From Candidatus Hadarchaeota archaeon (lineage in GTDB: Archaea; Hadarchaeota; Hadarchaeia; Hadarchaeales; Hadarchaeaceae): a DNA stretch of 64,000 nucleotides. Position 1 is the stretch's first letter. The number at the start of each line of letters is the position of its first letter. The position numbers were made by a program, and so were the translations under genes. The notes beneath the pieces were generated by a model. It worked only from the letters and a program-made list of their open reading frames with translations, ran no database searches and had not been told where the DNA came from. Shown here piece by piece: positions 15,823 to 62,700 of this stretch. The stretch is from positions 13,361 through 77,360 of the forward strand of contig JBFMBF010000002.1 in NCBI GenBank assembly GCA_040755315.1, given 5' to 3'.

Positions 15823-16185
15823 TTACCCTTTTCGACGAAATCTCTTCGCACGCATACCATTCAGGTACTCAATTTGTTGTTTTGGATTCAGCGGCAGAGG
15901 TGATTTGAGGATCGATTTAACTATTGCTGTTTCTATGGCGGATTTTGAGCTCCTGCTTTTAGACACGACGTAGAACAACAGCGCGGCTCCGGCCGAGGTC
16001 AGGGTCATCGCCACCACGGCCATGGCCACCGCCACCGGCTCCAAGTTCGGAGCGGCCCCCACCACACCGAAAAGAACCGCCCCGATGGATATCGATATCA
16101 GGGCCGCAATGCCTATTGTCTCCAGCACTTCGACTAGGTCGACTAGCATCGCCGTTCCTCTGAGCTGTAGGAGGATTTCAACCAC
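15823..16185 (-). CDS. Two-TM membrane protein, paralogous to the TM module of the downstream wHTH protein
   Basis: 'LISISIGAVLFGVVGAAPNLEPVAVAMAVVAMTLTSAGAALLFYVVSKS' aligns with 'LISLVISVAVGVALFGVFGIAPSVGFTTIAVALAVIILISVGATLVFYLAFRS' of ORF 15339..15794. No wHTH is present. Confidence 0.45.
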   Translation of the reverse strand: MVEILLQLRGTAMLVDLVEVLETIGIAALISISIGAVLFGVVGAAPNLEPVAVAMAVVAMTLTSAGAALLFYVVSKSRSSKSAIETAIVKSILKSPLPLNPKQQIEYLNGMRAKRFRRKG

Positions 16186-17254
16186 TTCGCCTGATAACGA
16201 TGTACTTGGTTGCGACTATGCTTAGAAGCGCTGCGAAGATTGCTGCAACAAGCACTGTGAACCAAGGCATCACTTGCGCCAAGCCAGCTCCCGTCGAGCC
16301 GAGGACACCGATCTTGGGGTCGTGGACTATAGACGTTCCGCGCTCGTAAATCAGGTAGATGTCTCTGTCACCTTCTTCCGCGTCTCCCGAGATGTTGGTG
16401 GATTTTACTAGCCTTGAAACACCGTCAACTAGGGCCGTGTCCTTCCAGGAGAAGAACCCACTGTAGTCTCCGAGTTTCACCTTGACTTCATCTTCGTCCT
16501 CTCCCTCAACGTCGCGCTTCTCCTCTTCGACCTCGAACTCGCTGTCGAGCTCCGTCTTCAGGGCCAGCTTGCTGTCGCTGCGGGTGTATGGGTAGTTGTT
16601 TATCTCTATGTCTATTTTGATCTCGTTTGGTTTCACGTTATCGCCGCCGACGATTATCGAGGTCCCGCTCGCGTACACGGTGACCTTGAACACATTGTCT
16701 GCGGTCCGAGCTACGATTTTATGGACGGTAGTCGTGCCGACGTTTTCAGTTGTGCGCTGAATAGGTGAGAACGTGGTATTTTTGAGGTCGTAAGTGTAAA
16801 CCTCTTCACCCTTGTCGTAGAGTCCGTCACCGTCGTTGTCCACAAATTCAACAATCTCCTCGAATTTCACCTCGAACTCTAGCTCTGCCTTAAGGTTCGC
16901 ATTCTCTGTGGTCGCCTGCAGATCATCGTACTCAAGTTTGAATTTAACGCCCTCGTCGATCCTCATCCTGATTGTATGCTGTTCACTATACTCTCCTGCT
17001 CGTGTCTCGTCCGGGTTTCGGGCTTCTATCTCCACCTCGTTCTCGCTTCCCCTGATTTCGGCCGTTCGCTCCTCTTCCCCATGCTCGTCCGTTCCACCTG
17101 TTTTGCCTGCTGGCACGGTTATCTCCGACTGCTCGTTCTTTGAATCTCCGCCTTCGTCTGCCGTCACCACGGACGCCAGCGGGGGGGTCATGATGCTCAG
17201 CACGAGCAGCGCCGTCAACGCCGTCGCCGCACCCTTTTGTCCAAGTTCGCGCAT
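16178..17254 (-). CDS. Secreted acidic surface protein with C-terminal TM anchor
   Basis: 358 aa. It has a signal-like N-terminus (AATALTALLVLSIMTPPLASVVTADE), an Asp/Glu-rich body with a 'DNDGDGLYD' Ca-loop-like motif, and a C-terminal helix plus basic tail (VLVAAIFAALLSIVATKYIVIRRSG). Confidence 0.6.
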   Translation of the reverse strand: MRELGQKGAATALTALLVLSIMTPPLASVVTADEGGDSKNEQSEITVPAGKTGGTDEHGEEERTAEIRGSENEVEIEARNPDETRAGEYSEQHTIRMRIDEGVKFKLEYDDLQATTENANLKAELEFEVKFEEIVEFVDNDGDGLYDKGEEVYTYDLKNTTFSPIQRTTENVGTTTVHKIVARTADNVFKVTVYASGTSIIVGGDNVKPNEIKIDIEINNYPYTRSDSKLALKTELDSEFEVEEEKRDVEGEDEDEVKVKLGDYSGFFSWKDTALVDGVSRLVKSTNISGDAEEGDRDIYLIYERGTSIVHDPKIGVLGSTGAGLAQVMPWFTVLVAAIFAALLSIVATKYIVIRRSG

Positions 17255-23134: not shown

Positions 23135-24158
23135 GGGCTTGTCGAATAGTTCGTGATTTATAAATTGCCAGACAACAACACAATCTGAAGAGGCAGGCTG
23201 TGCTGAGGAGGTGGTTTGTAGGACGCACTAGCATGCACCCCGGATACCACGCGGCCCGGCACAGCGCCAAGATTTATGATGTCAACGCAGTTTATAAAAC
23301 CGCCATCAGCCTGGTAGCGAGGCTTCCCCCGCCCTGGGAAAAATCCAAGAGAGGCAGGCGCCCCAAGCTGTCTTCACGTCAATATCTGGCGGTGTGCGTC
23401 GTGTACGTGTGCCTGGACCTCACGTATCGCGAGATCGAGGGGCTCGGCCCGTCTTTTCTGAAGAAGACAGTGGACCACTCCACCGTGGGAAAGGCGTTCA
23501 AGCGGCTGAAGCCGAGTTACGTGAAGCTGGTGCTCGGCCTGCTCAGGAAGAGGCTCAAGGGGCACGCCGAGTTCGACTTCTACTTCATCGACTCGACGGG
23601 CATCTCCACCCCTCGACTGAAAACCCGCGTAAGGGCCCTCAAAAAGGTACGAGAACGCGAAAATCTCAAGCTGCACGTGCTCGCTGGTTATTCCAGCAAG
23701 GCCAGCGCGCTTGTAATTGTCGCGGCGAGGGTCACGAAGCACAATGTCACGGACGGCAGCCAGGTCGGATACCTGACCAGGGGCATCGACGGCGGGGGCA
23801 AGCGCCTCTTGGGGGACTCGGCATACGACTGGAGGCGCAATATCGAGCTCGCGCTGAAGCGCGGGTTCAAACCGTTGTTCAAGCCGAGAGATCTCGAGTA
23901 CCACGGGATGTTCAGGAAGATTGTGCTCCGCGACTTCAAGCGGAACCGCAAGCTCTACAAGCAGAGGGGCATCGGGGAGGCCATATTCGGCGGCATCGAG
24001 AACCGCTACGGTGCCCATACGAGATGCAAGAGGGTGAGGACGAAGGTCCTGAGTATGCTGCTCATGCTCGTGGCCCACAACCTGCGCACCTACATGCGCG
24101 TCCGCGCCGCGGAAAAAAGGGGGTTTTTATTTGTTATATGGATTTATTTGACAAGCCC
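23135..24158 (+). mobile_element. IS5-family insertion sequence (about 1,024 bp)
   Basis: The terminal inverted repeats are GGGCTTGTCGAATA (23135..) and TATTTGACAAGCCC (..24158), matching at 13 of 14 positions. They are flanked by the perfect 9-bp direct repeat CCCGACAAT. A single DDE transposase ORF fills the element. Confidence 0.75.
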
Positions 24159-24204
24159 CCCGACAATTCGTGTAGTATCCACGGCAACTCGCAAAAGGGA
24201 TTAA
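23200..24204 (+). CDS. IS5/IS4-superfamily DDE transposase
   Basis: 334 aa. The N-terminal HTH is 'RGRRPKLSSRQYLAVCVVYVCLDLTYREIEG'. The DDE candidates are 'FYFIDSTGI', 'LLGDSAYD' and 'GEAIFGGIENRYG'. The ORF reads through the right IR and stops 46 nt outside the element. Confidence 0.85.
   Translation: MLRRWFVGRTSMHPGYHAARHSAKIYDVNAVYKTAISLVARLPPPWEKSKRGRRPKLSSRQYLAVCVVYVCLDLTYREIEGLGPSFLKKTVDHSTVGKAFKRLKPSYVKLVLGLLRKRLKGHAEFDFYFIDSTGISTPRLKTRVRALKKVRERENLKLHVLAGYSSKASALVIVAARVTKHNVTDGSQVGYLTRGIDGGGKRLLGDSAYDWRRNIELALKRGFKPLFKPRDLEYHGMFRKIVLRDFKRNRKLYKQRGIGEAIFGGIENRYGAHTRCKRVRTKVLSMLLMLVAHNLRTYMRVRAAEKRGFLFVIWIYLTSPPTIRVVSTATRKRD
24159..24167. repeat. Right copy of the 9-bp target-site duplication CCCGACAAT
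   Basis: It is identical to 23126..23134 and lies immediately outside the right inverted repeat. Confidence 0.65.
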
Positions 24205-32150: not shown

Positions 32151-33272
32151 CTAAGCGCGTCTACGAATTACAAAAGCGGCCGAAGCCACAATCGCCACGG
32201 CGACAACGGCAACAATAACCAACGGGAGTATGCTGGTCCCACTTGTACCAAGCCCAGATATCGCGCTGGTCGCAGCCTCTCTGCTCATCGGCGAAGCCGT
32301 GAAAAGCGTCTGATCGCTTTGCGCGCTTGAAAGCCCGTAGGTGTAGCCTGATGACCCTGTTGACGCCTTTGAAAGCCCGCCCATGGCGTCAGTGAACGAA
32401 AGCTCTTGGGAGACCACAAAGCGCTTGTCCGGAGAGTAGTACATAACCCCAGCAGGCAGGAATATGTTTGAGCCGGAAAAATCAGCCCCCGTGTAAACTA
32501 TTTTGTACGCGGTTGTGGAGCTACCGTCCGCCAGCGCGATGTTGCTGGTGTTTGGGCAGCTTGCAGATATTGACAGGTTCACGGTTGAATCCAGATTTTG
32601 GTTTATAGGAATTTCTCCAAATCCAGGCATGCTCACCTTGCCGCTGATTGCCCCTGTTATTGTAGCTGTGGAGTTTATGGCCCAGTTGTCCCCAACTGAA
32701 ATCGGGAAGTCAAATAGATCCAACGCCGGGGAGAACGTCACGCTAATGTTTCCAGAAACGTCCATTGTCATGTTCAAGTTCCCAAGCGTGCCAGCGTTTC
32801 CAGACATCGTCATGTTCAAGTCCATAGTTCCGTCATACTTTGAAAGTCGCATATCGTCCTTTGTGAAGTACATCATCCCGTTCATCTTCAGCGTCATCAC
32901 CAAGTGCACTGTAGCGGCCATCTGTTGTCCGGAGTACGCGCCGCTGATGGTAACATCAGAAGTCATCTCGACCCCCTGGTTTGCCGCGAGGTTGTAGAAT
33001 TGGCTGTCTTGCCCCGTGACCTCAAACATCTCGTAGAAGCTCATTTCTCCCGTCATGTTCAGTGTCATGCCGGACAAATACTGTTGCATGTTTTCCACCA
33101 AAGCGTCCATTATCGACGTCAAGTCGATGTCTGCGGCGCCCATTGCCCAGCTGTCCCCCACGCTCCATGTCGGCACCCCCGCCTGAGGCGCGACCACCTG
33201 AGCGGCGGCCGTCATTAAAAAGGCAGCACAGGCCAAGCTCAGAATAGCCTTGCAGTTCAAGTTTTGCCCCAA
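32151..33272 (-). CDS. Secreted Met/Ser/Thr-rich protein with C-terminal TM anchor (hypothetical)
   Basis: 373 aa. It has a signal-like N-terminus (AILSLACAAFLMTAAAQVVAP), repeated VGD[SN]W motifs, and a C-terminal 'LPLVIVAVVAVAIVASAAFVIRRRA'. Confidence 0.55.
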   Translation of the reverse strand: MGQNLNCKAILSLACAAFLMTAAAQVVAPQAGVPTWSVGDSWAMGAADIDLTSIMDALVENMQQYLSGMTLNMTGEMSFYEMFEVTGQDSQFYNLAANQGVEMTSDVTISGAYSGQQMAATVHLVMTLKMNGMMYFTKDDMRLSKYDGTMDLNMTMSGNAGTLGNLNMTMDVSGNISVTFSPALDLFDFPISVGDNWAINSTATITGAISGKVSMPGFGEIPINQNLDSTVNLSISASCPNTSNIALADGSSTTAYKIVYTGADFSGSNIFLPAGVMYYSPDKRFVVSQELSFTDAMGGLSKASTGSSGYTYGLSSAQSDQTLFTASPMSREAATSAISGLGTSGTSILPLVIVAVVAVAIVASAAFVIRRRA

Positions 33273-33337
33273 TTTTATTATGACAGTATAGCTTAAAAGT
33301 TGACACCTGACAACCTGAAGCTGGAGTTGTCTGCCGA

Positions 33338-33814
33338 TTATCCGCCAGGAATTTGATCGATAGAGTTTATGACAACTTCTCCGTCGTAAAGAAGCCCCGC
33401 CCGCACGCTTGTTATCCTCACCTGCAGGATGCTTCCAATGGCAAGGTCTCCCTCTCGAAGCTGAACCTCGGCGTACGCCCAGTCGCTCTGTCTGAACCTC
33501 TCCGGGTTCTCAAAGGTCCAGCCGTAAAACTCGTTCTCTATCAACCTAGTCGGATGAGAGGCCCACCCCCTGATCTCATCGGTTGTTGGTTTGGTCAAGT
33601 CAAATCTTATAGTCTCCCCTCCAACATGCTGGATGTGAAATCTTGCTATGTTTTCAGTTATCAGCCCCGCGTATACTGCTATCTCGACATATCTGGGTCT
33701 GAAAGGGGAGTAATATCCGCTCAACCAGGTGGCAACTGGTACAGCAGCTGCGACGGTGATTGCGACGAGGAGAACAGTAGCTATAATCGGAGATATCCCT
33801 CGCCTTTCCATCAT
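33338..33814 (-). CDS. Archaeal type IV pilin-like protein (class III signal peptide, Pilin_N/DUF1628-like)
   Basis: 'MMERRG/ISPIIATVLLVAITVAAAV' is a canonical prepilin-peptidase-type N-terminus. The protein is 158 aa, and its ATGA overlaps the upstream KaiC-like gene. Confidence 0.65.
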   Translation of the reverse strand: MMERRGISPIIATVLLVAITVAAAVPVATWLSGYYSPFRPRYVEIAVYAGLITENIARFHIQHVGGETIRFDLTKPTTDEIRGWASHPTRLIENEFYGWTFENPERFRQSDWAYAEVQLREGDLAIGSILQVRITSVRAGLLYDGEVVINSIDQIPGG

Positions 33815-34710
33815 CTCAACCCCTCAATTAGCTCCGCGCGCGCGACCTCGAAACCGGCAGTTGGGGTTATGGTTACTTCAAACTTCACCACGGCTGCGCC
33901 GTCAAGCCTCGGAAGCAAGCCACGGAACTTCTCGAAATACATTATCCTGCGCCTTCTGGTGGGCCCGGCGGCTTCCCACTTGAAGGTGACGGAGCCGTCC
34001 ACACAGGCGGAGATTTCCTCTTCCCTGCGCTCTTCCAGGAGTTTTGCAGTCATGGGGAGGTAGATGATGCCGTCCCACCTTTTGGCCGCCCTCTGGAGCC
34101 CCCTGAGAAACAGCGTGAAATCGTACCACCTAGTCTCGGAGTCAGAATACAGCCTCGCCAAGTCACTAAGGGTGTAAAGCACTATGGCGTTGTTTGGGGC
34201 ATTAACCGTCAGAAATTCCGCAAGAGACTCAAGCATTGTTTTGGGCTTTATCGCCGGTGCAGCCGCCGTGCGGTGGAGGGTTGCGAAGGCATGTGTCAGC
34301 CCGTGCAGCTTCTCTTTTTCTACTTCCTCTTTTGCCTTGCCCGACACCCATTCGCTGGGAATAGGGGAAGTCCTGAAGTAGTCCTCCGAGAAGTCTCTGA
34401 ACTTGACGTTGTCTCTGAAAAGGGAGTAAAGGTCCTGTTCAAAGCTCATCATGACTTCTTGCCGAATGTCATCTGGCGCACGGGTGAACGTCGTCCACCA
34501 GACATCCCCAGCAGCTGTCGTTGTCGGCTCAGCCGCCTTTATCATCCCCTTTTTCATCGCGTAGGTCATTATGGAAGAGGTCATCAAAAACTCCTTGTGG
34601 CCGGCACCTATCTCAGACTTCAGCAGAACAAGGGATCCTGCCGGAAATCCGCCGCCTATGAGGGAATCCAGAGATAGGACTCCAGTTGGGATTGTCTTCA
34701 TTGAGTACAA
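33811..34710 (-). CDS. KaiC/RecA-superfamily protein with a degenerate P-loop
   Basis: 'IPTGVLSLDSLIGGGFPAGSLVLLKSEIGAGHKEFL' aligns with the KaiC/FlaH-type N-terminus, but Walker A reads GAGHKE rather than GxGK[ST]. The C-terminal 'IMYFEKFRG ... FEVTITPTAGFEV' is KaiC-like. Confidence 0.6.
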   Translation of the reverse strand: MYSMKTIPTGVLSLDSLIGGGFPAGSLVLLKSEIGAGHKEFLMTSSIMTYAMKKGMIKAAEPTTTAAGDVWWTTFTRAPDDIRQEVMMSFEQDLYSLFRDNVKFRDFSEDYFRTSPIPSEWVSGKAKEEVEKEKLHGLTHAFATLHRTAAAPAIKPKTMLESLAEFLTVNAPNNAIVLYTLSDLARLYSDSETRWYDFTLFLRGLQRAAKRWDGIIYLPMTAKLLEERREEEISACVDGSVTFKWEAAGPTRRRRIMYFEKFRGLLPRLDGAAVVKFEVTITPTAGFEVARAELIEGLR

Positions 34711-34737
34711 AAAATAATCTGGCTGGGACTATTAATC

Positions 34738-35460
34738 TTATGCGCCAAGCCTTTCCGCCAAGCTGCGGATGGACCTGGTGACGGGGCTTTTTGGTTTGTA
34801 AAATATCGCCGGCCGCCCCACGGTGGCAGCCTCCATCACGGACACATCTTCAGGTATCCCCACAAGTATTTTCGACTTGAGCCGCGCCTGGATGTGGGCC
34901 CGGCCCATCAGCTTGAGCTTTTTGAAGAATGTCGGCTTCCGCACACGGTTTACCGCAACCCCCAGTATTTTCAGCCCCATCGCTTGTCCCACCTCCTCCA
35001 GTTTTGCCGCAGCTTCAACGGCGGAGGGGTCCTGTGTCGTGACGGAGATTATGTCATCAGCCAGCTTAAGTGGGGTGAGGCTGTATTTGTTCAAGCCGGG
35101 GGGAGTATCCATAATAACATAGTCAAAACTGGGCTTCAGCCCCAATATGATGTCAGGCAGCTTCGCAGGGTTTGCTCGGACAAAACTCCCGACGGCGTGG
35201 CCTGACGGAAGAACCCAAACACCGTAGGCTTCGTAAATGCTTTTTTCTGGATCCCCCCTGCCAGACATCAGGTCATGCAGGTTGGGGTCGCGGTCTGTCA
35301 TCCCGAGGAGGGTGCTCAAGCCAGCCATGGCGATATCGGCGTCCACAATCAGAACCTTCCGTCCAAGCCTGCCCAGCATTATGCCTAGATTTTCCGCTAT
35401 GGTGGTCTTGCCGACACCACCCTTGATCGAGGCTATCGTGACCACTCGTCCCATAATCAC
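34738..35460 (-). CDS. minD: MinD/ParA-family P-loop ATPase
   Basis: 240 aa with the deviant Walker A 'SIKGGVGKTTIAENL' and 'LIVDADIAMAGL'. Confidence 0.85.
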   Translation of the reverse strand: MIMGRVVTIASIKGGVGKTTIAENLGIMLGRLGRKVLIVDADIAMAGLSTLLGMTDRDPNLHDLMSGRGDPEKSIYEAYGVWVLPSGHAVGSFVRANPAKLPDIILGLKPSFDYVIMDTPPGLNKYSLTPLKLADDIISVTTQDPSAVEAAAKLEEVGQAMGLKILGVAVNRVRKPTFFKKLKLMGRAHIQARLKSKILVGIPEDVSVMEAATVGRPAIFYKPKSPVTRSIRSLAERLGA

Positions 35461-35492: not shown

Positions 35493-35500
35493 CTATATAA
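35493..35500 (+). promoter_or_regulatory. TATA box (CTATATAA)
   Basis: It lies about 26 nt upstream of position 35522. It is followed by GGAGGT (35525..35530) and ATG 35538. Confidence 0.45.
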
Positions 35501-53796: not shown

Positions 53797-56700
53797 TTAC
53801 CACTCTTCTTCTTTCGGTGCTTTTGGCATTTTTGGAGCACTTGGACCACTTGGGGCTTTTGGCATTTTTGGAATACCCATTTCAGGTTTTCTAAACTTCT
53901 TGAACGCTACCACAGCCACAACCGCAAACACTCCAACAGCTGCCCCGGCACCGATAATCACAATATCTGGTGCTCCCGTTGTCCCTCCACTAGGTGGTGG
54001 CGGAGATGAGCCTGGCAGAGTTGAGCTTGTTGAAATGTAGATGCTCAAGCTTTGAGTGTCTGTCTGTGAATTCGCATCCATAACTTTCACCGTGAAGTCG
54101 AATGTTTCTTGAGCGGATGGTATTCCTGAAATCGTTCCCCCTGTGGACAAGTTCAATCCAGCTGGGAGCGACCCGCTGTGTAAAGACCATGTATACGGAG
54201 GAGTCCCTCCGGTGGCAGATAGGTTCTGACTGTAAAGTGTGCCCACCGTCCCATTTGGAAGAGTTAGTGTCGTTATATTCGGTGATGAAGATGATGGTGC
54301 AGCGGTAACAGTCAGCGAGAAGACTTGAGATGACTGCGCACCGCCACCGCTTGCAGTTATGGTTATCTGGCAAGAGGAAGCTCCCGTCGCGGTGGTTATC
54401 CTCAACTTTGTTGTAAACGGAGGGGCACCGGAGGATGATCCCACCCATGACGCCGAAATATTGGATGGCAGCGCGTCGTACGACAAGGATGCAGAGGAAA
54501 CCCCGCTTGCTGTAACGCCCACATTCACATCTACGGACTCTCCAGCCACGACAGTAGCGCTGCTTGGAGAGATTGAAACGCTGATGGAGGCACTGCTTCC
54601 AGGCGACCCGGGCTGCTCAGGCGGCGGCGGAGGGGGTGGAGGAGGCGATGATTCTTGAACTGTCACAGATGCAGAGTTTTCCTGAGATACATTGGTGGCA
54701 TTGTCCCAAACCCTAACCTTGATGGTGTGGCCGCCAACACCAAGCCCTGAAACGGTGAAGTTAGCCGAAACATTTTCCCAGTTGCCGCTGTCCACCATTC
54801 GTTCGATGTTTTTCACCCCGCTCATGGCATCCGTCGCGGTCACGATGAAAGAGGCGTCTGCTCCAGAATTAATAGTTTGAGACAACGGGCTCAGGGCCGC
54901 ATGCGGGTTTGTTGCATCGACGCCGAACCATCTGCTCTCTGACCAAGGACCTTGGTTGCCAGCGTTGTCTATGCCGCGGACTCTTCGGTAGTAGTTGTTA
55001 TCGGGAAGCTCGGTTGGAATGGTGAAGATTACCGTATTGTCGCAAACGGCGTTGTCGTAAATCCACGCATTGTCGTAAATCATGTTTTCATGCGAGTTGT
55101 CGGTTGAAATCTGCAGCTGGTACCTCCATAGTTTTTTGTTGTCTGTGTCGTATATCTCTCCCCACATGAAAGTTGGGGCGTTGTCTTTGTGCCAGGTGTT
55201 TTCCAGCCACTGCGGGGGCTGGGCAGGCGCCGTGACATCAATGACAAAGCTCCAGACAAGTTCTGTGTAGTGCGGCCCGCCAGCGCCAGCCGAAATATTG
55301 TCGTACACCTGCAACTTCAAATAGTATGTATTTTCAGCAAGCTCGACTTGCATGAAGTTGTCGGTCCTGATCCTGATGCGTGTCCCGTCCCGGTTTTCAA
55401 GGTAACTATTTTCCGATTGGATAAGCATCGCCCCGGAAAATGTATTTTCGTTGTCAAGCCAAAGCCTGAAGTTCTCCAGGATGCCAGCGCCTTGGTCTGT
55501 GATCAATAACCACAACCGCGGGGTGTTGTCGCGTATGAATCCAATGTTTTCCAATGTCACGTAATTGTTTTCGCGTTTGTTCTCGTTTTCCTCGAATAGG
55601 GTGATTTGCAGCCTGTAGTTCTCAACTTTCGGCGGCTGCGTGTCAATAATCAGTGTCCTGTTTTCAGACCACTGTCCGATGTTGCCAGCGCCTTCTTCCG
55701 CCCTTACCCTCCAGTAATAAAGTCCATCCAGTAGCTCGGCGCCAAGCTGCAGGCTTGAGCTGTTAAGTCCCCCAGAATCATAAATTGCGCTGGAGAAGTC
55801 GTTGTCGTTGTCAACTACGGTCCAGTAGGTCACGCCGCTTTCGTTTGCGACCCCCAGCCAGTCGAAAAGTGGAGTATTGTCATCTTTTAGGAAGTTTACC
55901 GGAGATTCCAAAGTCGGCGCCGCTGGCGGGATTGTGTCTATTAACAACCACCTTGATGAGGAAATAGACGAGTTCCCAGAGTTGTCTGTGGCAACCACCC
56001 TCCAGTAAAGTATCCCGTTCGGCAGCTCGCTTACAGCGGTGTGTGAGTTGTCAAGGATGTTCTCATTGTCGTATACATACGGGAGTGTAAAGTCCGCGTC
56101 ATAGTCCAATTGGATCCGGTATTTAACTCCTGAAAAGTCATAAACGGCTGACCAAGTGAACGATGGAGTGTTGTCGTTTGTAAGGAGCCCATTTTGTGGT
56201 GAACTGAGGGATGGTGCCGGCGGGGCCTGCACGTCTACTTTGAAGCTTCTAGCAGATGTGAACCCACTCGCGTTGCCTGCATTGTCCCCTGATTGCACGG
56301 CCCAGTAGTATAGGTTGTCTGTTAGAGCTTCAATTTCTGAAAGCATGTACAGGTTTTCTTTAATGTTGGACTTTCTGCGGACGACAAGAGCGAGGGCGTT
56401 GTCTTGGGATATGACAAGCTCGTAGTTATCTGCATTTTCAACCGTTGACCACCTGAAAGTCGGTTTTGAGGTGTTTTCCGCGCTCCCTTCGGCAGGCGAC
56501 ACTAATGTCGTGCACGCCGGTTTTTGGGTATCTATTATTAACTTTCTGTTGTCGCTCCAGTTTTCATTGCCAACAATGTCAGAGACTTTGACTCCCCAGA
56601 TGTATGTATTGTCTGGTAGCGCATCCCCGTCCGGAATTGTTTGTTCAGAAATACTCAAACCGCTGTACTGTCTGGCGACAGTGTTGTCAAGTCTCCACAC

Positions 56701-59700
56701 AAAAACGCCGTACTGGACTTCACTGATGTCCACCACCGCTTGCCAGTCGAAGCGTGGGGTGTTGTCGTTTGTGAACGAGTTGTTCTCAGGCGATAGTGGA
56801 GTTGGTTTCAGAACTTTCGTGTCAATGTTGAACCAACTATTGCTTGACGAGTTTTCATTTCCAGCGGTATCTCTAACAAATACCCTCCAGTACCAGAGGC
56901 CGTCGGCCAGGGAGTTCTCCGTGTGTGTGTCGAAGTTGTCGCGGTTTTCCGTCAGCTCGGAGTTGTCGTAGATCGGCGAGGAGAAATCATTGTCATTGTC
57001 TACCTGCAGCCTGTAGTTTTCATTGTTTTCCGACTTCGTCCAGCGGAAGACAGGGGTGCTGTCAGTGACGGTCTCATTAAGCGAGGGTTGTAGGAGCGTG
57101 GGGGCGGCGAGAACCGTATCGAGTCTGAACCGGCCCGCAGCCAGACCCCCGCTGTTCCCCGCTCCATCAATTGTTTTAACCCTCCAGTACCACACATTGT
57201 CATAAGTTAAGGAGTTTTCCATGGTGTGCTCGCTCGGGGCGATGTTTTGTTTGTTGTAGATAGGTGAGCTGAAGTCGTTATTGTCGTCTACTTGGAGAGT
57301 GTACGTGACGCCAGAGGTGTCACCGACGCTGCTCCAGTTGAAAAACGGTGTTGGATCGTTGATGTTTTCTCCGTTTTCTGGTTTTTCAAGTGTCGGGGTG
57401 CCTGGGGGGGCGATGTCAATAATAATCCGCCAGTTATCGGACCACTGCCCAAAGTTCTTGGCATTGTCCATGGCCCTCACCCGCCAGTAGTAAATTCCGG
57501 TGGCTGGGAAGTTGTAGGTGAAGTTGTTGTCATTATTCTCATTTTCGTAAGGCGAGGCGAAACTTGGGTCATCGTCAATCTGGATGGCGTAGTTTTCAAA
57601 CCCTGGGGCCCATTCATCGACATTTTCCACCCATGTGAATGTTTGCGCCGCGCGGTTGTCGGCGGTGTTGTTAGGAGGGGACATTAGTGTTGGTTTTCCT
57701 GGAGCCTTGGTGTCAATGACAAGCCTGTAATAATTGGACCAGCCGCTGAAGTTCCTCGCTCGGTCGTACATGCAGACGCGCCAGTAGTAAACGCCGTCGG
57801 CCAAGCCAGCAGCCAGTGTGTTCTCGTTGTCCAAGATGTTTGCGATTGTCACTGGTGATGAGAAGTCGTTGTCGTTGTCTATCTGTAAAGAGTAGTTCTC
57901 AGGTGTTTCTGGCTGTGTCCACTTGAAAGTTGGGGTGTTGTCATTCTCAAACTTGTTGTTGTCCGGCGAAACGGGCGAGGGTGTGCTCGGCGCAGCGTTG
58001 TCGAGATTGAATGTCCAGTTGTCAGACCACCGCACATTGCCTGCGCGGTCCTGGGAGCCGACCCGCCAGTACCAGGTACCTGTCGCGTTCAGCTCATTTT
58101 CCTGTGGCAACTGGAGTGAGGTGCCGGAGATGTTGTCGTTGTCGTAGCGTGGCGAGGCGTAGTTGGAGTCGTCGTCAACTTGCAGCCTGTAAGCCACGAA
58201 GTTAGTGTCACTTCCACCCATCCACCTGAAGCTCGGGCGGTTGTCATTTTCATAGTTTCCTGTTGTTGGCGAGAGCAGGTAAACAGGCGATGGAAAGGCC
58301 GTGTCCACCGTGAATCGATTTTCTCTCCATGATCCGACGTTACCATTGTCGTCCTGCTCGCGTACCCTCCAGTACCACAGGCCTTCGGGCAATGCGTCCG
58401 CGGGGTGGGTGTCAAAGTTGTCGCGGTTTTCATTTATGCTCAAATCATTGTAGTATGGAGAGGAGAAGTCCTCGTCGTTGTCCACCTGCAGGTGGTATGT
58501 GATTGTTGCCGCGCCGGCCCCTGGGAAGGCCGTCGTCCAGCTGAAATATGGCGTGTTGTCAGAGATAAAATAATTGTTCTCAGGGGTGAGAAGAGGCGAA
58601 GGCCCGCCAGTAAAGGCAGTGTTGACGGTGAACTGCCAGGTGTTTTCGGCCTTGTTTTCGTTTTCTGTGCCGGCGCTGTCCATGCTCCACACGCTCCAGT
58701 AGTAAGTCCCGTCCGGATAACCTGGAGAGGGCTTCGTCCACTTGTTGTCCCCCACCACAACCACATTATCTATCGGTGAGGACAAGTCGTTGTCGTTGTC
58801 GACCATTATCCTGTGCTTGGAAGCGTTTGTCCCGTTCTCCCACTGGAACTGTGGCGTGTTGTCCCTGATAGGTACATTGTTCTCCGGGTAAAACAGGGCG
58901 GGCTTCCCAACATAGCTGTAGGTGAACTTCCAGTTGTCCGACCAGTTTTCTGGGTTTATGCCGTCCCTTGCCGAGACCCGCCAGTACCAGGTACCTGTCG
59001 CGTTCAGCTCATTTTCCTGTGGCAACCGGAGTGAGGTGCCGGAGATGTTATTGTTGTCGTAGCGAGGCAAGGAGAAGTCGTTGTCGTTGTCCACCTGTAG
59101 GTGGTATGTGACGCCATTCGGGTCGTTGACAGTGAGCCATGTGAACATTGGGCGGTTGTCCGCCACTACCGAGCTGTTTTTGGGGGAGTATAAAGTCGGG
59201 GCGCGGACGTAGCTCCATATCACATAAACGGGAGACCACGGGCTCGTGTTTCCAGCCCTGTCAATTGCCATGACTCTCCAATAATAGTTGTCTTCCGGAA
59301 GAACGTTCTCGGGGTGCAGATCAAAGTTGTCAAAGTTGTCTTTGAGGATGTTGTCGTAGATCGGCGAGGAGAAGTCGTTCTCGTTGTCTATGACCAATCT
59401 GTACCTCTCATACCTTGAGCTGCTGAGCAAGAAATCGACTGTAACTGCTTGGTTTTCTGTAACGGTGACGCCGGACACGTTGTCACGGTAGCCGTATGCG
59501 CTAGCTCTCAAAGTGTAGTTGCCCGGTGAACTCGACATGGTATAAAATCCATTTTCGTCAGTGATTCCAGTCACGCTTTTTTCAACAATCGTCACAGTCG
59601 CCCCCCGTATCCCGGCCAGTGTTGAAACGTCCCGCACGTAGCCTTTTATTACAGTTCCTCCCCAGGTTTGTGCCATTGTGACTGCGTCGTACGCGTCGAT

Positions 59701-62700
59701 CCGGCCGTACCCGTACCGATCATCTTTGCCAGCTGTGCCTAGGTCAACCGCTGTCCCCTGCAAAATTTGATAAACATCGCTGACCGTCAATGATGGGTTT
59801 GCTTTCAACATCAAAGCCACTGTGCCAGCAACGTGCGGCGTCGCCATGGATGTTCCGCTATATGACGCCCAAGAGCCGCCAGGAATGGAAGAGTAAACAG
59901 ACACGCCGGGTGCGCTGAAGTCAGGCTTTATGTAGCTGTTCGGCCAGTCGCTTGGTGGGGAAGACCACCAGGCTTTGTATACAGTTTCCCCGCTGCTGAA
60001 CGAGGCGATCACGTCACTTGAGTCGGTTGCGCCAATGCCAAAAGCGTCGTAGACGTTGCCAGGTGAACTAGACGATCCATAGTAGTCGTTCCCAATGGCG
60101 GCAACGGGCACCACACCATTTGCCGCCATATTTCTAATTGGTTCTATCAGTGTGTCGTAGTAACCGTACGCACCAAAAGACATGCTTACAACATGGGCCT
60201 TCTGACCGGCAGGGTTGCCATATTGGTTCACCGGGCTTACCGCCCACTGCATCCCGGCTATGACCTGACTGAAACTCCCGCTACCGTAAGGCAGAACCAG
60301 GGCATGCATGAGTTTTGCGCCTGGTGCGACGCCAATCGCAGTCCCACTCGTGTTATCTCCGAGGACTGTGCCCGACGTGTGGGTGCCGTGGTCATCTGTA
60401 TCATGCGGTGTGGAACTCAAGACTCTGCTGCCTAAATCATCAAACTCTATCCAGCCACCGGGATAGGTGGGATCCTCAGCGTTGTCCGTCAACATCTTGC
60501 CTGTGAGGTCCGGGTGCGAGATGCTGACTCCAGTATCTAGAACTGCCACTCTGATCCCGTCCCCGTTGTCCCCCATCGCCCAAACCTGCGGCGCTCTTAT
60601 TTTATCCAGACCCCAAGCGTTTGTTTGAAGTGTCCCGATGTTTTCAGATTCTGGTTTCGGTGCTTGAATAATGAAATCTTCATGGACTTGTTCCACTTCT
60701 TCTAGAGATACGAGTTCGTTCAGGGTGTCAACATTTACCTCGGCAACTACGGCGTTTGCCAGCCAGAACTGGTTCAAAATTCTGGCGCCCTGCCTGCGTA
60801 GAACATTAGTGGCGTTGGCCTGCAAGTTTTGTGCGTGGTTTTTCATCACTTCGGCAGCTTTGTCGGAGCTAACACCACTCAAATCAGCTGACTTAAGCCT
60901 GACAACTATTTTAATTGTTTCGCCTGGTCGAGCCGATTCAAGCTTACGCGCCAGTCCAGGGGCCAGTTTCTCGCGTGCAGACTTCTTTTGCTGTTTTTCA
61001 CCTGCTCCTGCGGTGTCTGCAGACTGAAATGCCGTAATGCCGTTATTGGCACCAAATGATATTGTGGTGCCAGATGTGCTCCCGCTGCTTGAAAAGCCCG
61101 TAAAACTTGATGATGACAAAACTTCGCTCGAGACCCAGTTATCTATGTTTTCGTTCCATCCGAAGTAGGGGGTATTGTCGTCAAAGCCGGAACCGTTTTC
61201 AGGAGAGATCAAAACAGGTGCGCCAGGCGGAATCGTGTCAATGACGAACCACCTAGTTTCTGACCAGCTACCGGTGTTCCCAGCGGAATCGTATGCGCGC
61301 ACTCGCCAGTAGTAGCGGTTGTCCTGGAGGGCCTCCCCGCCCGGAATGTAGTACTCAGATACAGTTATGCCTGAATATGTGCGTGGGGTGCTGAAGTTAG
61401 GCATGTTGTCGATCTGGAGAGTGTAGTTGGGCCCTGTGGAATCTGAAACTGGTCCCCAGTCAAAGAAGGGGGTGTTGTCATTCTGATGGTTGTCGTTCTC
61501 TGGGGAAACAAGCGCCGGGATCCCTGGGGACGTGGAGTCACTACCACAGCTGGCATCAGCTATTCCCGGGGCCGTTTCGGCGTTGTTGGCGCGATCCTTG
61601 GATGTGGTGTAAAACTGATAGAAACCGTCCCCGTTTGGTGGGGTGAAAGTCCACGACCACGGGCTTGCCAGATCGTTGTCGTTTTCCGTCCAATTACTCC
61701 ACCAAACGTTGTCTGTGGAATAACGGTACCAGAGCGTCGCGCGCTCAACCCCGCTTGGCGCGTCGCTCGCGGTGGCCGTGATTGTGAAAGATGGGGAGTT
61801 TTGCCAGTAGGGGATGATTTGGTTCACACTTGAACTTGGAGGAGTTACATCTACTGTTATCATCCTGTATGCAGACCAGTTCTCGTTGTTCAAGTTGTCC
61901 CTGGCCATAACTCGCCAGTAGTAAACATTGTCTGGGAGTTGATTTTCAATCTCAACACTTACTCCGGTTACATTGCCATTATCGTAAATGATGCTTGTGA
62001 ATGCCGAGTTGCGTGATATTTGAAGCCTGTAAACAACTGGACTTGATGGGTCCGCCACAGCGGCCCAGCTGAAGGTCGGGGCATTGTCGTTCTCGTACTT
62101 CCCATCAGTAGGTGATGACAGGGTTGGTGCAGTGACAGTGTTATCCACCCTCAGCCACCAAGTGTCCGACCAGTTTATGCCAACGTTGCCCGCGTTGTCA
62201 ACGGCGCGAACCCGCCAGTAGTAGATGTTGTCAACCAGAGGAATGCCCGACGTGTAGCTTACAGCTGTCGTGTTTTCCCGGATTTCCGGTGAGGAAAAGC
62301 TCAGGTCGTTGTCAACCCATATTTCATATCTTGCCGCGCCAGCCACGGCCGACCACTGGAAGCTTGGAGTGTTGTCCCTCGTGTTTTCACCCGGCGCCGG
62401 CGAGATGAGCAGTGGGGCGTCTGTGGGGGGTTGGGTATCCACAGAAAACTTGTAGATAGATGACCAGCTTCCGACATACCCCCAACTGTCGCTGGCGCGA
62501 ACCCGCCAGTAGTATGAGTTTTCCCCAAGCGCATTTCCAGCAGGCAGAGTGATGGTGTTGTCAGTCATCCCGGAGTTTTCGTAAAATGGAGATCCGCACC
62601 CAGGGTCATTGTCAAGCTGGAAGTCGTAGGTTACACCGGAAAAGTCAAGTGGCCTGGACCACGTGAATGTAGGGGTGTTGTCGTTTGTGAACGAGTTGTT

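Follow-up and report, generated by a model that had tools for sequence, protein, structure and literature searches.

A conserved MinD, KaiC-like pseudo-ATPase and pilin gene module in Hadarchaeales, possibly the detached half of a split type IV pilus system

Results

Three adjacent minus-strand genes of a Hadarchaeota contig, encoding a MinD-type ATPase, a KaiC-like pseudo-ATPase (KaiCL) and an archaeal type IV pilin-like protein, make up a conserved accessory module. Arrangements of this kind have been described in archaea before, and the present one is a variant specific to its lineage. A fourth co-directional gene, encoding a 373-aa secreted protein (P373), is a neighbor outside the module. 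The preliminary description of this DNA had placed all four genes in one operon. Most of what it reported agrees with our analyses: the four minus-strand ORFs and their positions, the flanking ArgRS and CCA-enzyme genes (recovered by Pfam scan), the nature of each product, including a degenerate KaiC-like protein and a pilin sharing an ATGA overlap with it, and the lack of pilus ATPase and platform genes nearby. The single four-gene operon, on the other hand, does not stand.

Throughout the window, i.e., the whole 64-kb stretch of DNA analyzed, a single PilB query and a single TadC query gave no match in tblastn, and Pfam scans found no pilus-machinery domain in 37 of the larger ORFs. Peptidase_A24 (prepilin peptidase) was likewise absent among the larger ORFs scanned. 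A complete archaeal type IV pilus locus was rejected, given these 64 kb with neither PilB nor TadC and the adjacency of PilB in 0/8 Hadarchaeales loci. A TATA-box-like element, TTATATA (35494..35500, minus strand), can be read ~35–40 nt 5′ of the MinD start, inside the 62-nt divergent spacer common to MinD and the CCA-enzyme gene, and may be the MinD promoter.

The MinD/FleN-type ATPase (34738..35460, minus strand) scores essentially at the threshold of TIGR01969 minD_arch (201.0 bits, cut-off 201.75, residues 5–238) and has several Pfam matches, namely ParA, AAA_31 and CbiA. Its deviant Walker A, KGGVGKT, is intact and agrees with the KGGxxGK[ST] pattern of the ParA/MinD superfamily; SIKGGVGKTT (residues 11–20) is kept in all Hadarchaeales orthologs. 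Counted from GTG the protein has 240 aa; the true start is probably ATG 35454, which matches a 238-aa ortholog. No C-terminal amphipathic membrane-targeting helix is evident by eye: the chain (...KPKSPVTRSIRSLAERLGA) does not extend beyond the core fold, and more distant orthologs in loci L001 and L008 carry Lys-rich tails at that end. Membership in the membrane-binding MinD type (E. coli MinD, MinD4, CpaE) was rejected on the absence of such a helix.

KaiCL (33811..34710, minus strand) is 299 aa long from TTG and probably starts instead at ATG 34701 (MKTIPTG), giving 296 aa as in its orthologs. It stays below the cut-offs of KaiC PF06745 (16.5 bits against 26.6, with only the N-terminal 32 residues covered), DUF7125 PF23442 (15.0 bits against 29.1) and ArlH/FlaH NF052589 (26.9 bits against 215). 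Relatives of KaiCL give just “faint” DUF7125 matches, and a proper match is found in the KaiC2 partner of Methanomicrobia. The profile and fold comparisons suggested in the preliminary description nevertheless recovered a KaiC/RecA fold. In the PDB, the KaiCL family profile matched KaiC (E = 4.5e-11), as well as SSO2452, PH0186, RadA and FlaH. A Methanoperedens member of the family matched the C-terminal half of FlaH/ArlH (1e-10 to 1e-11). The AF2 model (pLDDT 85.7, pTM 0.83) retrieved KaiC-CI and PH0186 in Foldseek (E ~1e-12, target-normalized TM 0.75–0.77). We are confident in predicting a RecA-like alpha/beta core resembling KaiC-CI, which carries a helical insertion of ~50 aa at residues 112–160.

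Both ATPase motifs have been lost from this predicted fold. In the family alignment, the consensus at Walker A is GE[IM]G[AS]GxxEF and no Lys is conserved anywhere in the family; the window protein has GAGHKEF, aligned to GTGKTVF of KaiC, in place of GxGK[ST]. In place of Walker B (hhhhD) it has IVLYT, where Methanomicrobia members have IIIDS. The change of the Walker B Asp to Tyr is specific to the clade of the window and comes on top of the family-wide loss of the Walker A Lys. The possibility of an active KaiC/RecA ATPase was rejected because GxxxxGK[ST] and hhhhD are both gone.

The pilin-like protein (33338..33814, minus strand; 158 aa) scores above both relevant cut-offs, Pilin_N PF07790 (29.3 bits, cut-off 25.2) and TIGR02537 (48.4 bits, cut-off 20). 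Its class III signal peptide, MMERRG/ISPIIATVLLVAITV, has the [KR]G/hydrophobic helix layout of archaeal type IV pilins; the RRG/ISPIIATVLLVAITV motif is kept in 8 orthologs, and a C-terminal DQIPGG is conserved in the ortholog alignment. Its start overlaps the KaiCL stop by 4 nt (ATGA). No other protein of the window has a convincing class III signal peptide.

Neighborhoods are strongly conserved within Hadarchaeales. MinD lies directly 5′ of KaiCL in 9/9 species loci, i.e., every locus with enough flank, and in 0/68 loci outside the order. The class III signal-peptide pilin is found just 3′ of KaiCL in the closer clade (6/9 species loci), where the 4-nt ATGA overlap recurs in L006, L009, L011 and L015. 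Further pilin-like genes can follow the first one: a second Pilin_N gene is present in L006, L013, L014 and L015, the last of which has an extended pilin cluster behind the module. The other three loci, the more distant group, have no pilin at the immediate downstream position. Two of them (genome loci L016 and L018) have pilin-like/DUF7289 genes a few kb off on the opposite strand, as do two related loci from metagenomes (L001 and L008); L017 has none on its 9.8-kb contig. The conserved unit is three genes (MinD, KaiCL and pilin), not four; the conservation of gene order that the preliminary description had proposed to examine thus holds for the MinD–KaiCL pair and, in the closer clade, for the pilin, but not for the fourth gene.

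Two relatives indicate where the motor genes may be found. In L016, a pilin–TadC–PilB cluster lies ~6 kb from MinD–KaiCL. L006 has the CCA–MinD–KaiCL–pilin order of the window; its 188-kb contig also carries, at a distance of ~50 kb, a bare pair of PilB3-type ATPase and TadC genes with no pilins or KaiC beside it. This ATPase reaches 380 bits against an ArlI cut-off of 550 and so is of the pilus rather than the archaellum type.

Outside Hadarchaeales, the comparison set comprised 70 other archaeal species loci of the Methanomicrobia type, with denominators that vary per neighbor. KaiCL is head-to-head (divergent) with a PilB3-type ATPase gene in 62/63 of these loci, with TadC beyond PilB in 45/55, and is followed by an intact KaiC paralog (KaiC_arch_3, TIGR03880; 276.6 bits, cut-off 249.45) in 65/66. 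In a Methanoperedens example (L003), the ATPase has PilB3_N and T2SSE domains. The window KaiCL is 33–41% identical to the first gene of this KaiC pair beside PilB–TadC.

P373 (32151..33272, minus strand; 369 aa if counted from the second TTG) is an all-beta protein of an uncharacterized family: no Pfam or NCBIfam family matched, and its AF2 model (pLDDT 84.2) gave no significant fold match in the PDB. It is probably secreted, anchored at the C-terminus and N-glycosylated, judging from its N-terminal hydrophobic signal, seven N-X-S/T sequons and, at the C-terminus, a TM helix with RRRA after it; with 6.4% Met, it is also as Met-rich as previously noted. The 65-nt spacer between the pilin stop and P373 contains a TATA-like TTTTAAGCTATA and a T-run. 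In three relatives, P373 homologs (45–52% identity) are located directly 5′ of ArgRS, without MinD, KaiCL or pilin and with unrelated upstream neighbors (a V-ATPase operon or TiaS). The genomic partner of P373 in relatives is ArgRS, not the module, and trio-bearing relatives have a second pilin or an unrelated gene at its position, never the P373 family. We place P373 outside the module because of its own TATA-like spacer element and these ArgRS-linked homologs. The same observations, and the consistent absence of the family from loci that keep the trio, make it very improbable that all four genes are one operon with P373 as a pilus-associated adhesin or anchor, in spite of its co-direction, the short distance to the pilin stop, the identical four-gene order in a 97%-identical MAG (L009) and the adhesins and S-layer-like proteins noted in pilus loci (Makarova 2016, PMC4858521).

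Discussion

The adjacency of PilB to the KaiCL family in other orders, together with the distant PilB–TadC pair of L006, leads us to favor, with some reserve, the interpretation that an archaeal type IV pilus system is split here and that the locus is its detached half with the cytoplasmic regulators and the pilin. The preliminary description had suggested an accessory module acting on a pilin-like surface structure, with no ATPase or platform gene nearby; the pairing of MinD with KaiCL in all nine loci, the 62/63 adjacency to PilB and the L006 PilB–TadC pair support this suggestion. Gene content, folds, motif loss and conserved neighborhoods are results of the analysis; the physical interactions, the pilus itself and the regulatory logic we infer as follows. 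The pilin would be cleaved at RRG/I by a prepilin peptidase and assembled by a PilB3-type ATPase and a TadC platform encoded elsewhere in the genome. KaiCL would act as a catalytically dead RecA-fold adaptor docking on the PilB ATPase, comparable to ArlH/FlaH on ArlI/FlaI. The MinD-type ATPase could be the nucleotide-dependent switch for where or when the motor is active, in the manner of FlhG/FleN in flagella, of MinD4 at the archaellum of Haloferax and of CpaE/TadZ, which forms a ring around CpaF in bacterial Tad pili. The partner of the adaptor would be an intact single-domain KaiC in Methanomicrobia, a place that MinD may have taken over in Hadarchaeales. Several points count against this interpretation: PilB and TadC are missing from the 64 kb, 3/9 Hadarchaeales loci lack the pilin immediately 3′ of KaiCL, the membrane tethering of the window MinD is not explained by any evident amphipathic helix at its C-terminus, and archaeal MinD paralogs also serve non-pilus cargo.

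In an alternative, MinD and KaiCL are a general pair for cargo positioning or cell organization (division, shape, chromosome, protein clusters) and the pilin is a passenger with no functional tie. We find this unlikely. The window MinD is indeed essentially at the cut-off of the archaeal “cell division ATPase MinD” model, Haloferax MinD paralogs reportedly affect cell shape and CetZ1 besides motility (PMC11588486, PMC11621097), and the pilin is not immediately adjacent in 3/9 Hadarchaeales loci. However, a passenger pilin accords poorly with a KaiCL that adjoins PilB in nearly every locus of other orders, with stop/start overlaps between KaiCL and pilin in several species, with pilin-like/DUF7289 genes a few kb off in most of the distant Hadarchaeales loci and with PilB–TadC 6 kb off in L016.

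A comparably low probability is given to the idea that the protein with the class III signal peptide is displayed on the surface or is of the pseudopilus type (bindosome-like or a minor “pilin”) and is no filament subunit, so that the module would control surface-protein display or a short periplasmic-type structure instead of an extended pilus. Its 158-aa body, which includes a strongly conserved globular domain and the C-terminal DQIPGG, is bigger and more conserved than many major pilins, and the pilin models match only its N-terminal ~35–70 residues. The TadC and PilB relatives do score weakly on the bindosome BasE/BasF models, but far under the cut-offs (217 vs 1000; 53 vs 1300), and the associated ATPase has PilB3_N and PilB3_C domains, named for the Haloferax adhesion-pilus ATPase. 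Moreover, the Pfam scan found no substrate-binding-protein domain in the pilin.

Beyond the split pilus system that we prefer, it is conceivable, and we offer it only tentatively, that KaiCL is a dedicated, catalytically dead adaptor ring for PilB3-type pilus ATPases that can be driven by interchangeable nucleotide switches, with Methanomicrobia using an intact KaiC and Hadarchaeales a MinD dimer. If true, this would reveal that the motor of archaeal type IV pili has a previously unrecognized checkpoint layer, joining ArlH–ArlI logic with CpaE–CpaF logic, and a clear non-orthologous displacement of the switch component. The leads provided by the locus are a widespread RecA-fold pseudo-ATPase nearly always beside a PilB3-type ATPase gene (~70 relatives), whose partner varies with the lineage between an active KaiC and a MinD-type ATPase, and a Hadarchaeota pilus system that appears to be split, its motor being encoded apart from the site of the regulators and pilins. 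Automated pilus finders requiring co-located ATPase and platform genes would overlook such systems in uncultivated subsurface archaea.

Little is known about the regulation of archaeal type IV pilus assembly and disassembly; KaiC-family and FleN/MinD ATPases have already been listed as predicted pilus-associated regulators, and both stand-alone pilin genes and ATPase/TadC modules apart from pilin sets have been described (Makarova et al. 2016, PMC4858521). To see no described kind of system here is therefore too strong; only the exact Hadarchaeales operon of MinD, pseudo-KaiC and pilin was not found in the literature searched. The new elements are the exchange of KaiC for MinD as the partner and the recognition of KaiCL as a pseudo-ATPase. 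In Methanomicrobia, a pair of KaiC-family ATPases, arCOG01172/arCOG01173, adjoins the VirB11(PilB)/TadC operon (Makarova, Koonin & Albers 2016, PMC4858521), and we take the KaiCL-containing pair to be this one. The degenerate P-loop of the first gene and the tie to a PilB3-type pilus ATPase are shared; Hadarchaeales differ in having a MinD-type ATPase upstream instead of the intact KaiC partner (TIGR03880), PilB and TadC that are not adjacent and a translationally coupled pilin gene downstream.

The nucleotide-dependent interaction between FlaH and FlaI is reportedly essential for the archaellum motor (PMC5019145). Like ArlH/FlaH, to which its weak sequence similarity is detectable, KaiCL is a single-domain protein of predicted KaiC/RecA fold genomically linked to a hexameric ATPase of the FlaI/PilB family. 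ArlH retains a nucleotide-binding Walker A and binds ATP, whereas KaiCL lacks the Walker A Lys and, in the clade of the window, the Walker B Asp as well; in addition, the ATPase linked to KaiCL is of the pilus type and not of the archaellum type.

As to MinD, CpaE/TadZ of bacterial Tad pili and FlhG/FleN of flagella likewise belong to the ParA/MinD-family ATPases, have a deviant Walker A and share their loci with type IV filament genes. In Caulobacter, modelled CpaE dimers ring the CpaF motor, and CpaE is needed for localization (PMC13170226). CpaE/TadZ begin with a receiver-like domain and end in an amphipathic helix, both lacking in the single-domain 240-aa MinD of the window, and a CpaE/TadZ assignment was rejected on the missing receiver-like domain and on TIGR03815 (40.5 bits against a cut-off of 154). 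Haloferax volcanii MinD4, which positions the archaellum, is also an archaeal MinD-family protein and controls a type IV filament-related machine rather than cell division (10.1101/2020.04.03.021790). It differs in its long C-terminal extension with a membrane-targeting sequence and in its targets, the archaellum and chemosensory arrays; no KaiC-like neighbor is mentioned for it (“KaiC” occurs 0 times in 10.1101/2020.04.03.021790). Similar to the split arrangement is arCOG00589 with arCOG05040 in A. fulgidus (PMC4858521 supplement), where a MinD/FleN-type ATPase is also found off the core pilus locus, beside a small secreted protein that has a class III signal peptide; the window differs in the RecA-fold pseudo-ATPase located between MinD and pilin.

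Gene content of the locus

The preliminary description had listed four co-directional open reading frames on the minus strand, and all of them were found at exactly those coordinates; the flanking genes that it had named, ArgRS and the CCA-adding enzyme, were confirmed as well. The first gene (34738–35460, −) encodes a MinD ATPase with 201.0 bits against TIGR01969 (cut-off 201.75), additional matches to ParA, AAA_31 and CbiA, and an intact deviant Walker A motif, KGGVGKT. It is followed by a KaiC-like gene, hereafter KaiCL (33811–34710, −), whose N-terminal matches to KaiC, DUF7125 and ArlH are all sub-threshold. The third gene (33338–33814, −) encodes a pilin, recognized by Pilin_N (29.3 bits, cut-off 25.2) and TIGR02537 (48.4 bits, cut-off 20), and this is the only protein in the window with a convincing class III signal peptide. 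The fourth gene (32151–33272, −) has no Pfam or NCBIfam family. Scanning the window for tRNAs and Rfam families gave no matches.

Two start codons probably differ from those listed. Orthologs of KaiCL, the best of which is 97% identical and comes from a Candidatus Hadarchaeota MAG, are 296 aa long and begin with MK(T/I)IPTG, so translation of KaiCL probably starts at the ATG at 34701; MinD probably starts at the ATG at 35454, since a MinD ortholog begins with MGRVV. A TTATATA element precedes the MinD start by approximately 35–40 nt, only a short spacer (27 nt as listed, 36 nt with the start at 34701) separates MinD from KaiCL, and the pilin ATG overlaps the KaiCL stop as ATGA. These features fit a single MinD-KaiCL-pilin transcript.

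At the C-terminus, members of the pilin family share a strongly conserved (D/G)QIPGG, present in 8/9 aligned sequences, the window protein included. The window MinD shows no obvious membrane-targeting helix. Its orthologs in a more distant Hadarchaeales-type clade (locus L001, 7062–7961; locus L008, 6948–7955) are 299–335 aa long and carry long Lys/Pro-rich C-terminal tails (e.g., ...KKPKKEKKVSKPVKKKKRVSRPGKKK); the window MinD is tailless.

Neighbourhood conservation

A single scan of a species-representative genome collection with the KaiCL family profile yielded 80 loci, from 10 Hadarchaeales species and 70 other archaea. ORFs were called in these loci and classed by phmmer against reference proteins; loci whose flanking sequence was too short for a given feature are left out of its denominator below. 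The other archaea comprise Methanoperedens, ANME-2 and other Methanosarcinales, Methanocellales, Methanoculleus, Methanolinea, Methanoregula and Methanospirillum.

MinD lies directly upstream of KaiCL on the same strand in 9/9 Hadarchaeales loci and in 0/68 of the others, and a pilin ortholog directly downstream in 6/9 and 0/66, respectively. The other archaea have a divergent PilB adjacent to KaiCL (62/63, against 0/8 in Hadarchaeales), TadC beyond PilB (45/55 against 0/8) and a second KaiC downstream (65/66 against 0/9). In a Methanoperedens example (L003), the ATPase adjoining KaiCL has PilB3_N and T2SSE domains. Walker A is intact (GSPGTGKST) in the downstream KaiC paralog, which scores as a full TIGR03880 (KaiC_arch_3) member (276.6 bits, cut-off 249.45). 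Metagenome contigs agree with this picture from species genomes.

The 4-nt overlap of KaiCL and pilin recurs in four Hadarchaeales loci (L006, L009, L011 and L015). A 66%-identical relative, L006, has the order CCA-adding enzyme, MinD, KaiCL, pilin and second pilin, and three more distant Hadarchaeales-type loci (L001, L008 and L018) keep MinD-KaiCL, with convergent DUF7289-type pilin-like genes, some of them very large, a few kb away. MinD-KaiCL-pilin is a real, conserved three-gene module.

Some relatives show further peculiarities. On a 250-kb contig of a Hadesarchaea archaeon, an extended cluster (L015, 10888–19548) lies downstream of MinD-KaiCL-pilin. It comprises two further pilins (229 aa and 168 aa), two class III signal-peptide proteins (555 aa and 660 aa) and an additional, divergent paralog of MinD (280 aa) that matches the window MinD at E = 1e-15. 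The contig L053, labelled Candidatus Fermentibacteria bacterium, is probably mis-binned because its order, PilB, KaiCL and second KaiC, is typical of Methanosarcinales. L018 is labelled Candidatus Hodarchaeaceae (Asgard) and carries a Hadarchaeales-type MinD-KaiCL pair, which points either to lateral transfer or to faulty labelling or binning.

The fourth gene

The fourth protein has a 100% identical counterpart, AB1476_00720, in a Hadarchaeota MAG, and together with the KaiCL match this identifies the window as part of a Hadarchaeota genome. The protein contains 6.4% Met and seven N-X-S/T sequons; a hydrophobic signal lies at its N-terminus, and a C-terminal TM helix precedes RRRA. It was rejected as a pilin, its signal being Sec-type and not class III. 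At E ≤ 1e-3 its family counts 120 representatives; the 22 members searched are likewise without a Pfam family. The AF2 model is confident (pLDDT 84.2) and shows a long-stranded antiparallel beta-meander or barrel-like body. Foldseek returned no significant PDB match; the best, to outer-membrane beta-barrels (E = 0.02, TM below 0.4), is unreliable, and assignment to a known fold was discarded.

The preliminary description had treated all four genes as one unit, and in this it went too far: what is conserved is the three-gene module, and in relatives the fourth gene is linked to ArgRS. The four-gene order was found again only in L009, a 97% relative. Three homologs of the fourth protein (45–52% identity; Hadarchaeales-type L092, L093 and L094) are each encoded directly upstream of ArgRS, with unrelated upstream neighbours (a V-ATPase operon or TiaS) and with no MinD, KaiCL or pilin nearby. 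An operon shared with the module was rejected on this synteny. The 65-nt spacer upstream of the fourth gene contains a T-run and TTTTAAGCTATA. We conclude that the fourth gene goes with ArgRS and is no more than a neighbour of the module.

KaiCL as a predicted pseudo-ATPase

A profile built from an alignment of 22 KaiCL family members matches KaiC at E = 4.5e-11, and also the archaeal single-domain KaiC-like proteins SSO2452 and PH0186, RadA/Rad51 and FlaH. The AlphaFold2 model of KaiCL is confident (pLDDT 85.7, pTM 0.83), and Foldseek places it closest to KaiC-CI and PH0186 (E ~1e-12, target-normalised TM 0.75–0.77). Relative to these domains of ~225 aa, KaiCL has an extra helical insertion at residues ~112–160, which is longer in Hadarchaeales.

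The catalytic motifs are degenerate. Family-wide, the P-loop reads GE[IM]G[AS]Gxx-E-F and the conserved lysine is absent; in the window protein, GAGHKEF aligns with GTGKTVF of KaiC. The Walker B aspartate, present in Methanomicrobia members (IIIDS), is replaced by Tyr, His or Asn in the clade of the window (IVLYT in the window itself), and the position of the KaiC catalytic Glu pair reads TFTR in an alignment inspected by eye. KaiCL is therefore a predicted RecA-fold pseudo-ATPase. Identity with ArlH was ruled out by the model score (26.9 bits vs. 215) together with the loss of catalytic motifs, and a phospho-signalling or clock-type KaiC was dismissed on model scores and the same loss.

Location of the motor genes

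No match to PilB or TadC was found in the 64-kb window by tblastn with one query for each, nor did tblastn find a second KaiC, and Pfam scans of 37 of the larger ORFs, mostly housekeeping genes, revealed no pilus-machinery domains.

Such genes do exist in relatives. In L016, pilin, TadC and PilB lie ~6 kb downstream of MinD-KaiCL, and this PilB, used as a query, matched many Hadarchaeales PilB3-type ATPases. One of these, P0154, shares a 188,360-bp contig with L006: PilB and TadC are located at ~88.9–92.6 kb of the record and the MinD module within 24.0–40.9 kb, and no pilin or KaiC adjoins the PilB-TadC pair. P0154 is predicted to be a pilus-type ATPase because its ArlI score (380 bits) is below the cut-off of 550 and both PilB3_N and PilB3_C are present. 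Since the PilB-TadC pair stands elsewhere on the L006 contig, with neither pilin nor KaiC beside it, the absence of motor genes near the window module, noted in the preliminary description, is best explained by a split system.

Several PilB3-type ATPases of Hadarchaeales type (P0124, P0125, P0132 and P0203) are 650–1,280 aa long and contain intein and/or LAGLIDADG homing-endonuclease Pfam domains (PF14890, PF14528); such lengths and domains suggest that some of these pilus ATPase genes are intein-interrupted.

Discussion

The locus fits within the framework of Makarova, Koonin and Albers (2016; PMC4858521), in which KaiC-family ATPases are tied to archaeal pilus loci, some KaiC families being co-transcribed with VirB11/TadC in Methanomicrobia. 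In the same work, FleN/MinD (arCOG00589) is a predicted pilus regulator that usually occurs alone or shares small operons with genes for secreted or membrane proteins; major pilins, too, are often encoded on their own, and ATPase/TadC modules evolve apart from pilin sets. The earlier suggestion of an undescribed system was therefore overstated. In the portion of the supplementary text of that article that was available, arCOG01172 and arCOG01173 do not occur, and a literature search on Hadesarchaea pili gave nothing specific. Within the searchable literature, we found neither the Hadarchaeales MinD-KaiCL-pilin operon, nor the replacement of a KaiC partner by MinD, nor explicit recognition of the PilB-linked KaiCL family as catalytically dead, as predicted here.

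On the best reading, the module contributes one half, the regulators and the pilin, to a type IV pilus system that is split. We hypothesize that KaiCL most likely acts as a non-catalytic adaptor on the PilB hexamer, because it is almost always beside a FlaI/PilB-family ATPase and is remotely similar to ArlH/FlaH of the archaellum, whose nucleotide-dependent interaction with FlaI is reported to be essential for the motor (PMC5019145). Its constant companion, whether the active KaiC of Methanomicrobia or the MinD of Hadarchaeales, would serve as a nucleotide switch. MinD·ATP may recruit or license the KaiCL-PilB assembly, whose substrate would be the co-translated pilin. This proposal draws on MinD-family ATPases that control where, or in what number, related machines occur in other systems: MinD4 of Haloferax acts on the archaellum (10.1101/2020.04.03.021790), and in models of Tad pili CpaE dimers surround the CpaF motor (PMC13170226).

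Other features of the window

A 358-aa ORF (16178–17254, −) matches no Pfam family; its product has a hydrophobic signal at the N-terminus, MRELGQKGAATALTALLVLSIMTPPLASVV, and is predicted to be another uncharacterised secreted protein. A DDE_Tnp_1 transposase ORF (23200–24204, +), flanked by a thiolase/short-chain dehydrogenase/CoA-transferase cluster and an acetyl-CoA synthetase gene, is likely an insertion sequence. Finally, a giant ORF (53797–63993, −), which spans at least 3,398 aa, runs into the window end; it contains a Peptidase_S8 subtilase domain (residues 1144–1430), several Big_13 and Rha78A-type Ig domains and CarboxypepD_reg, and probably encodes a very large surface protease or adhesin.
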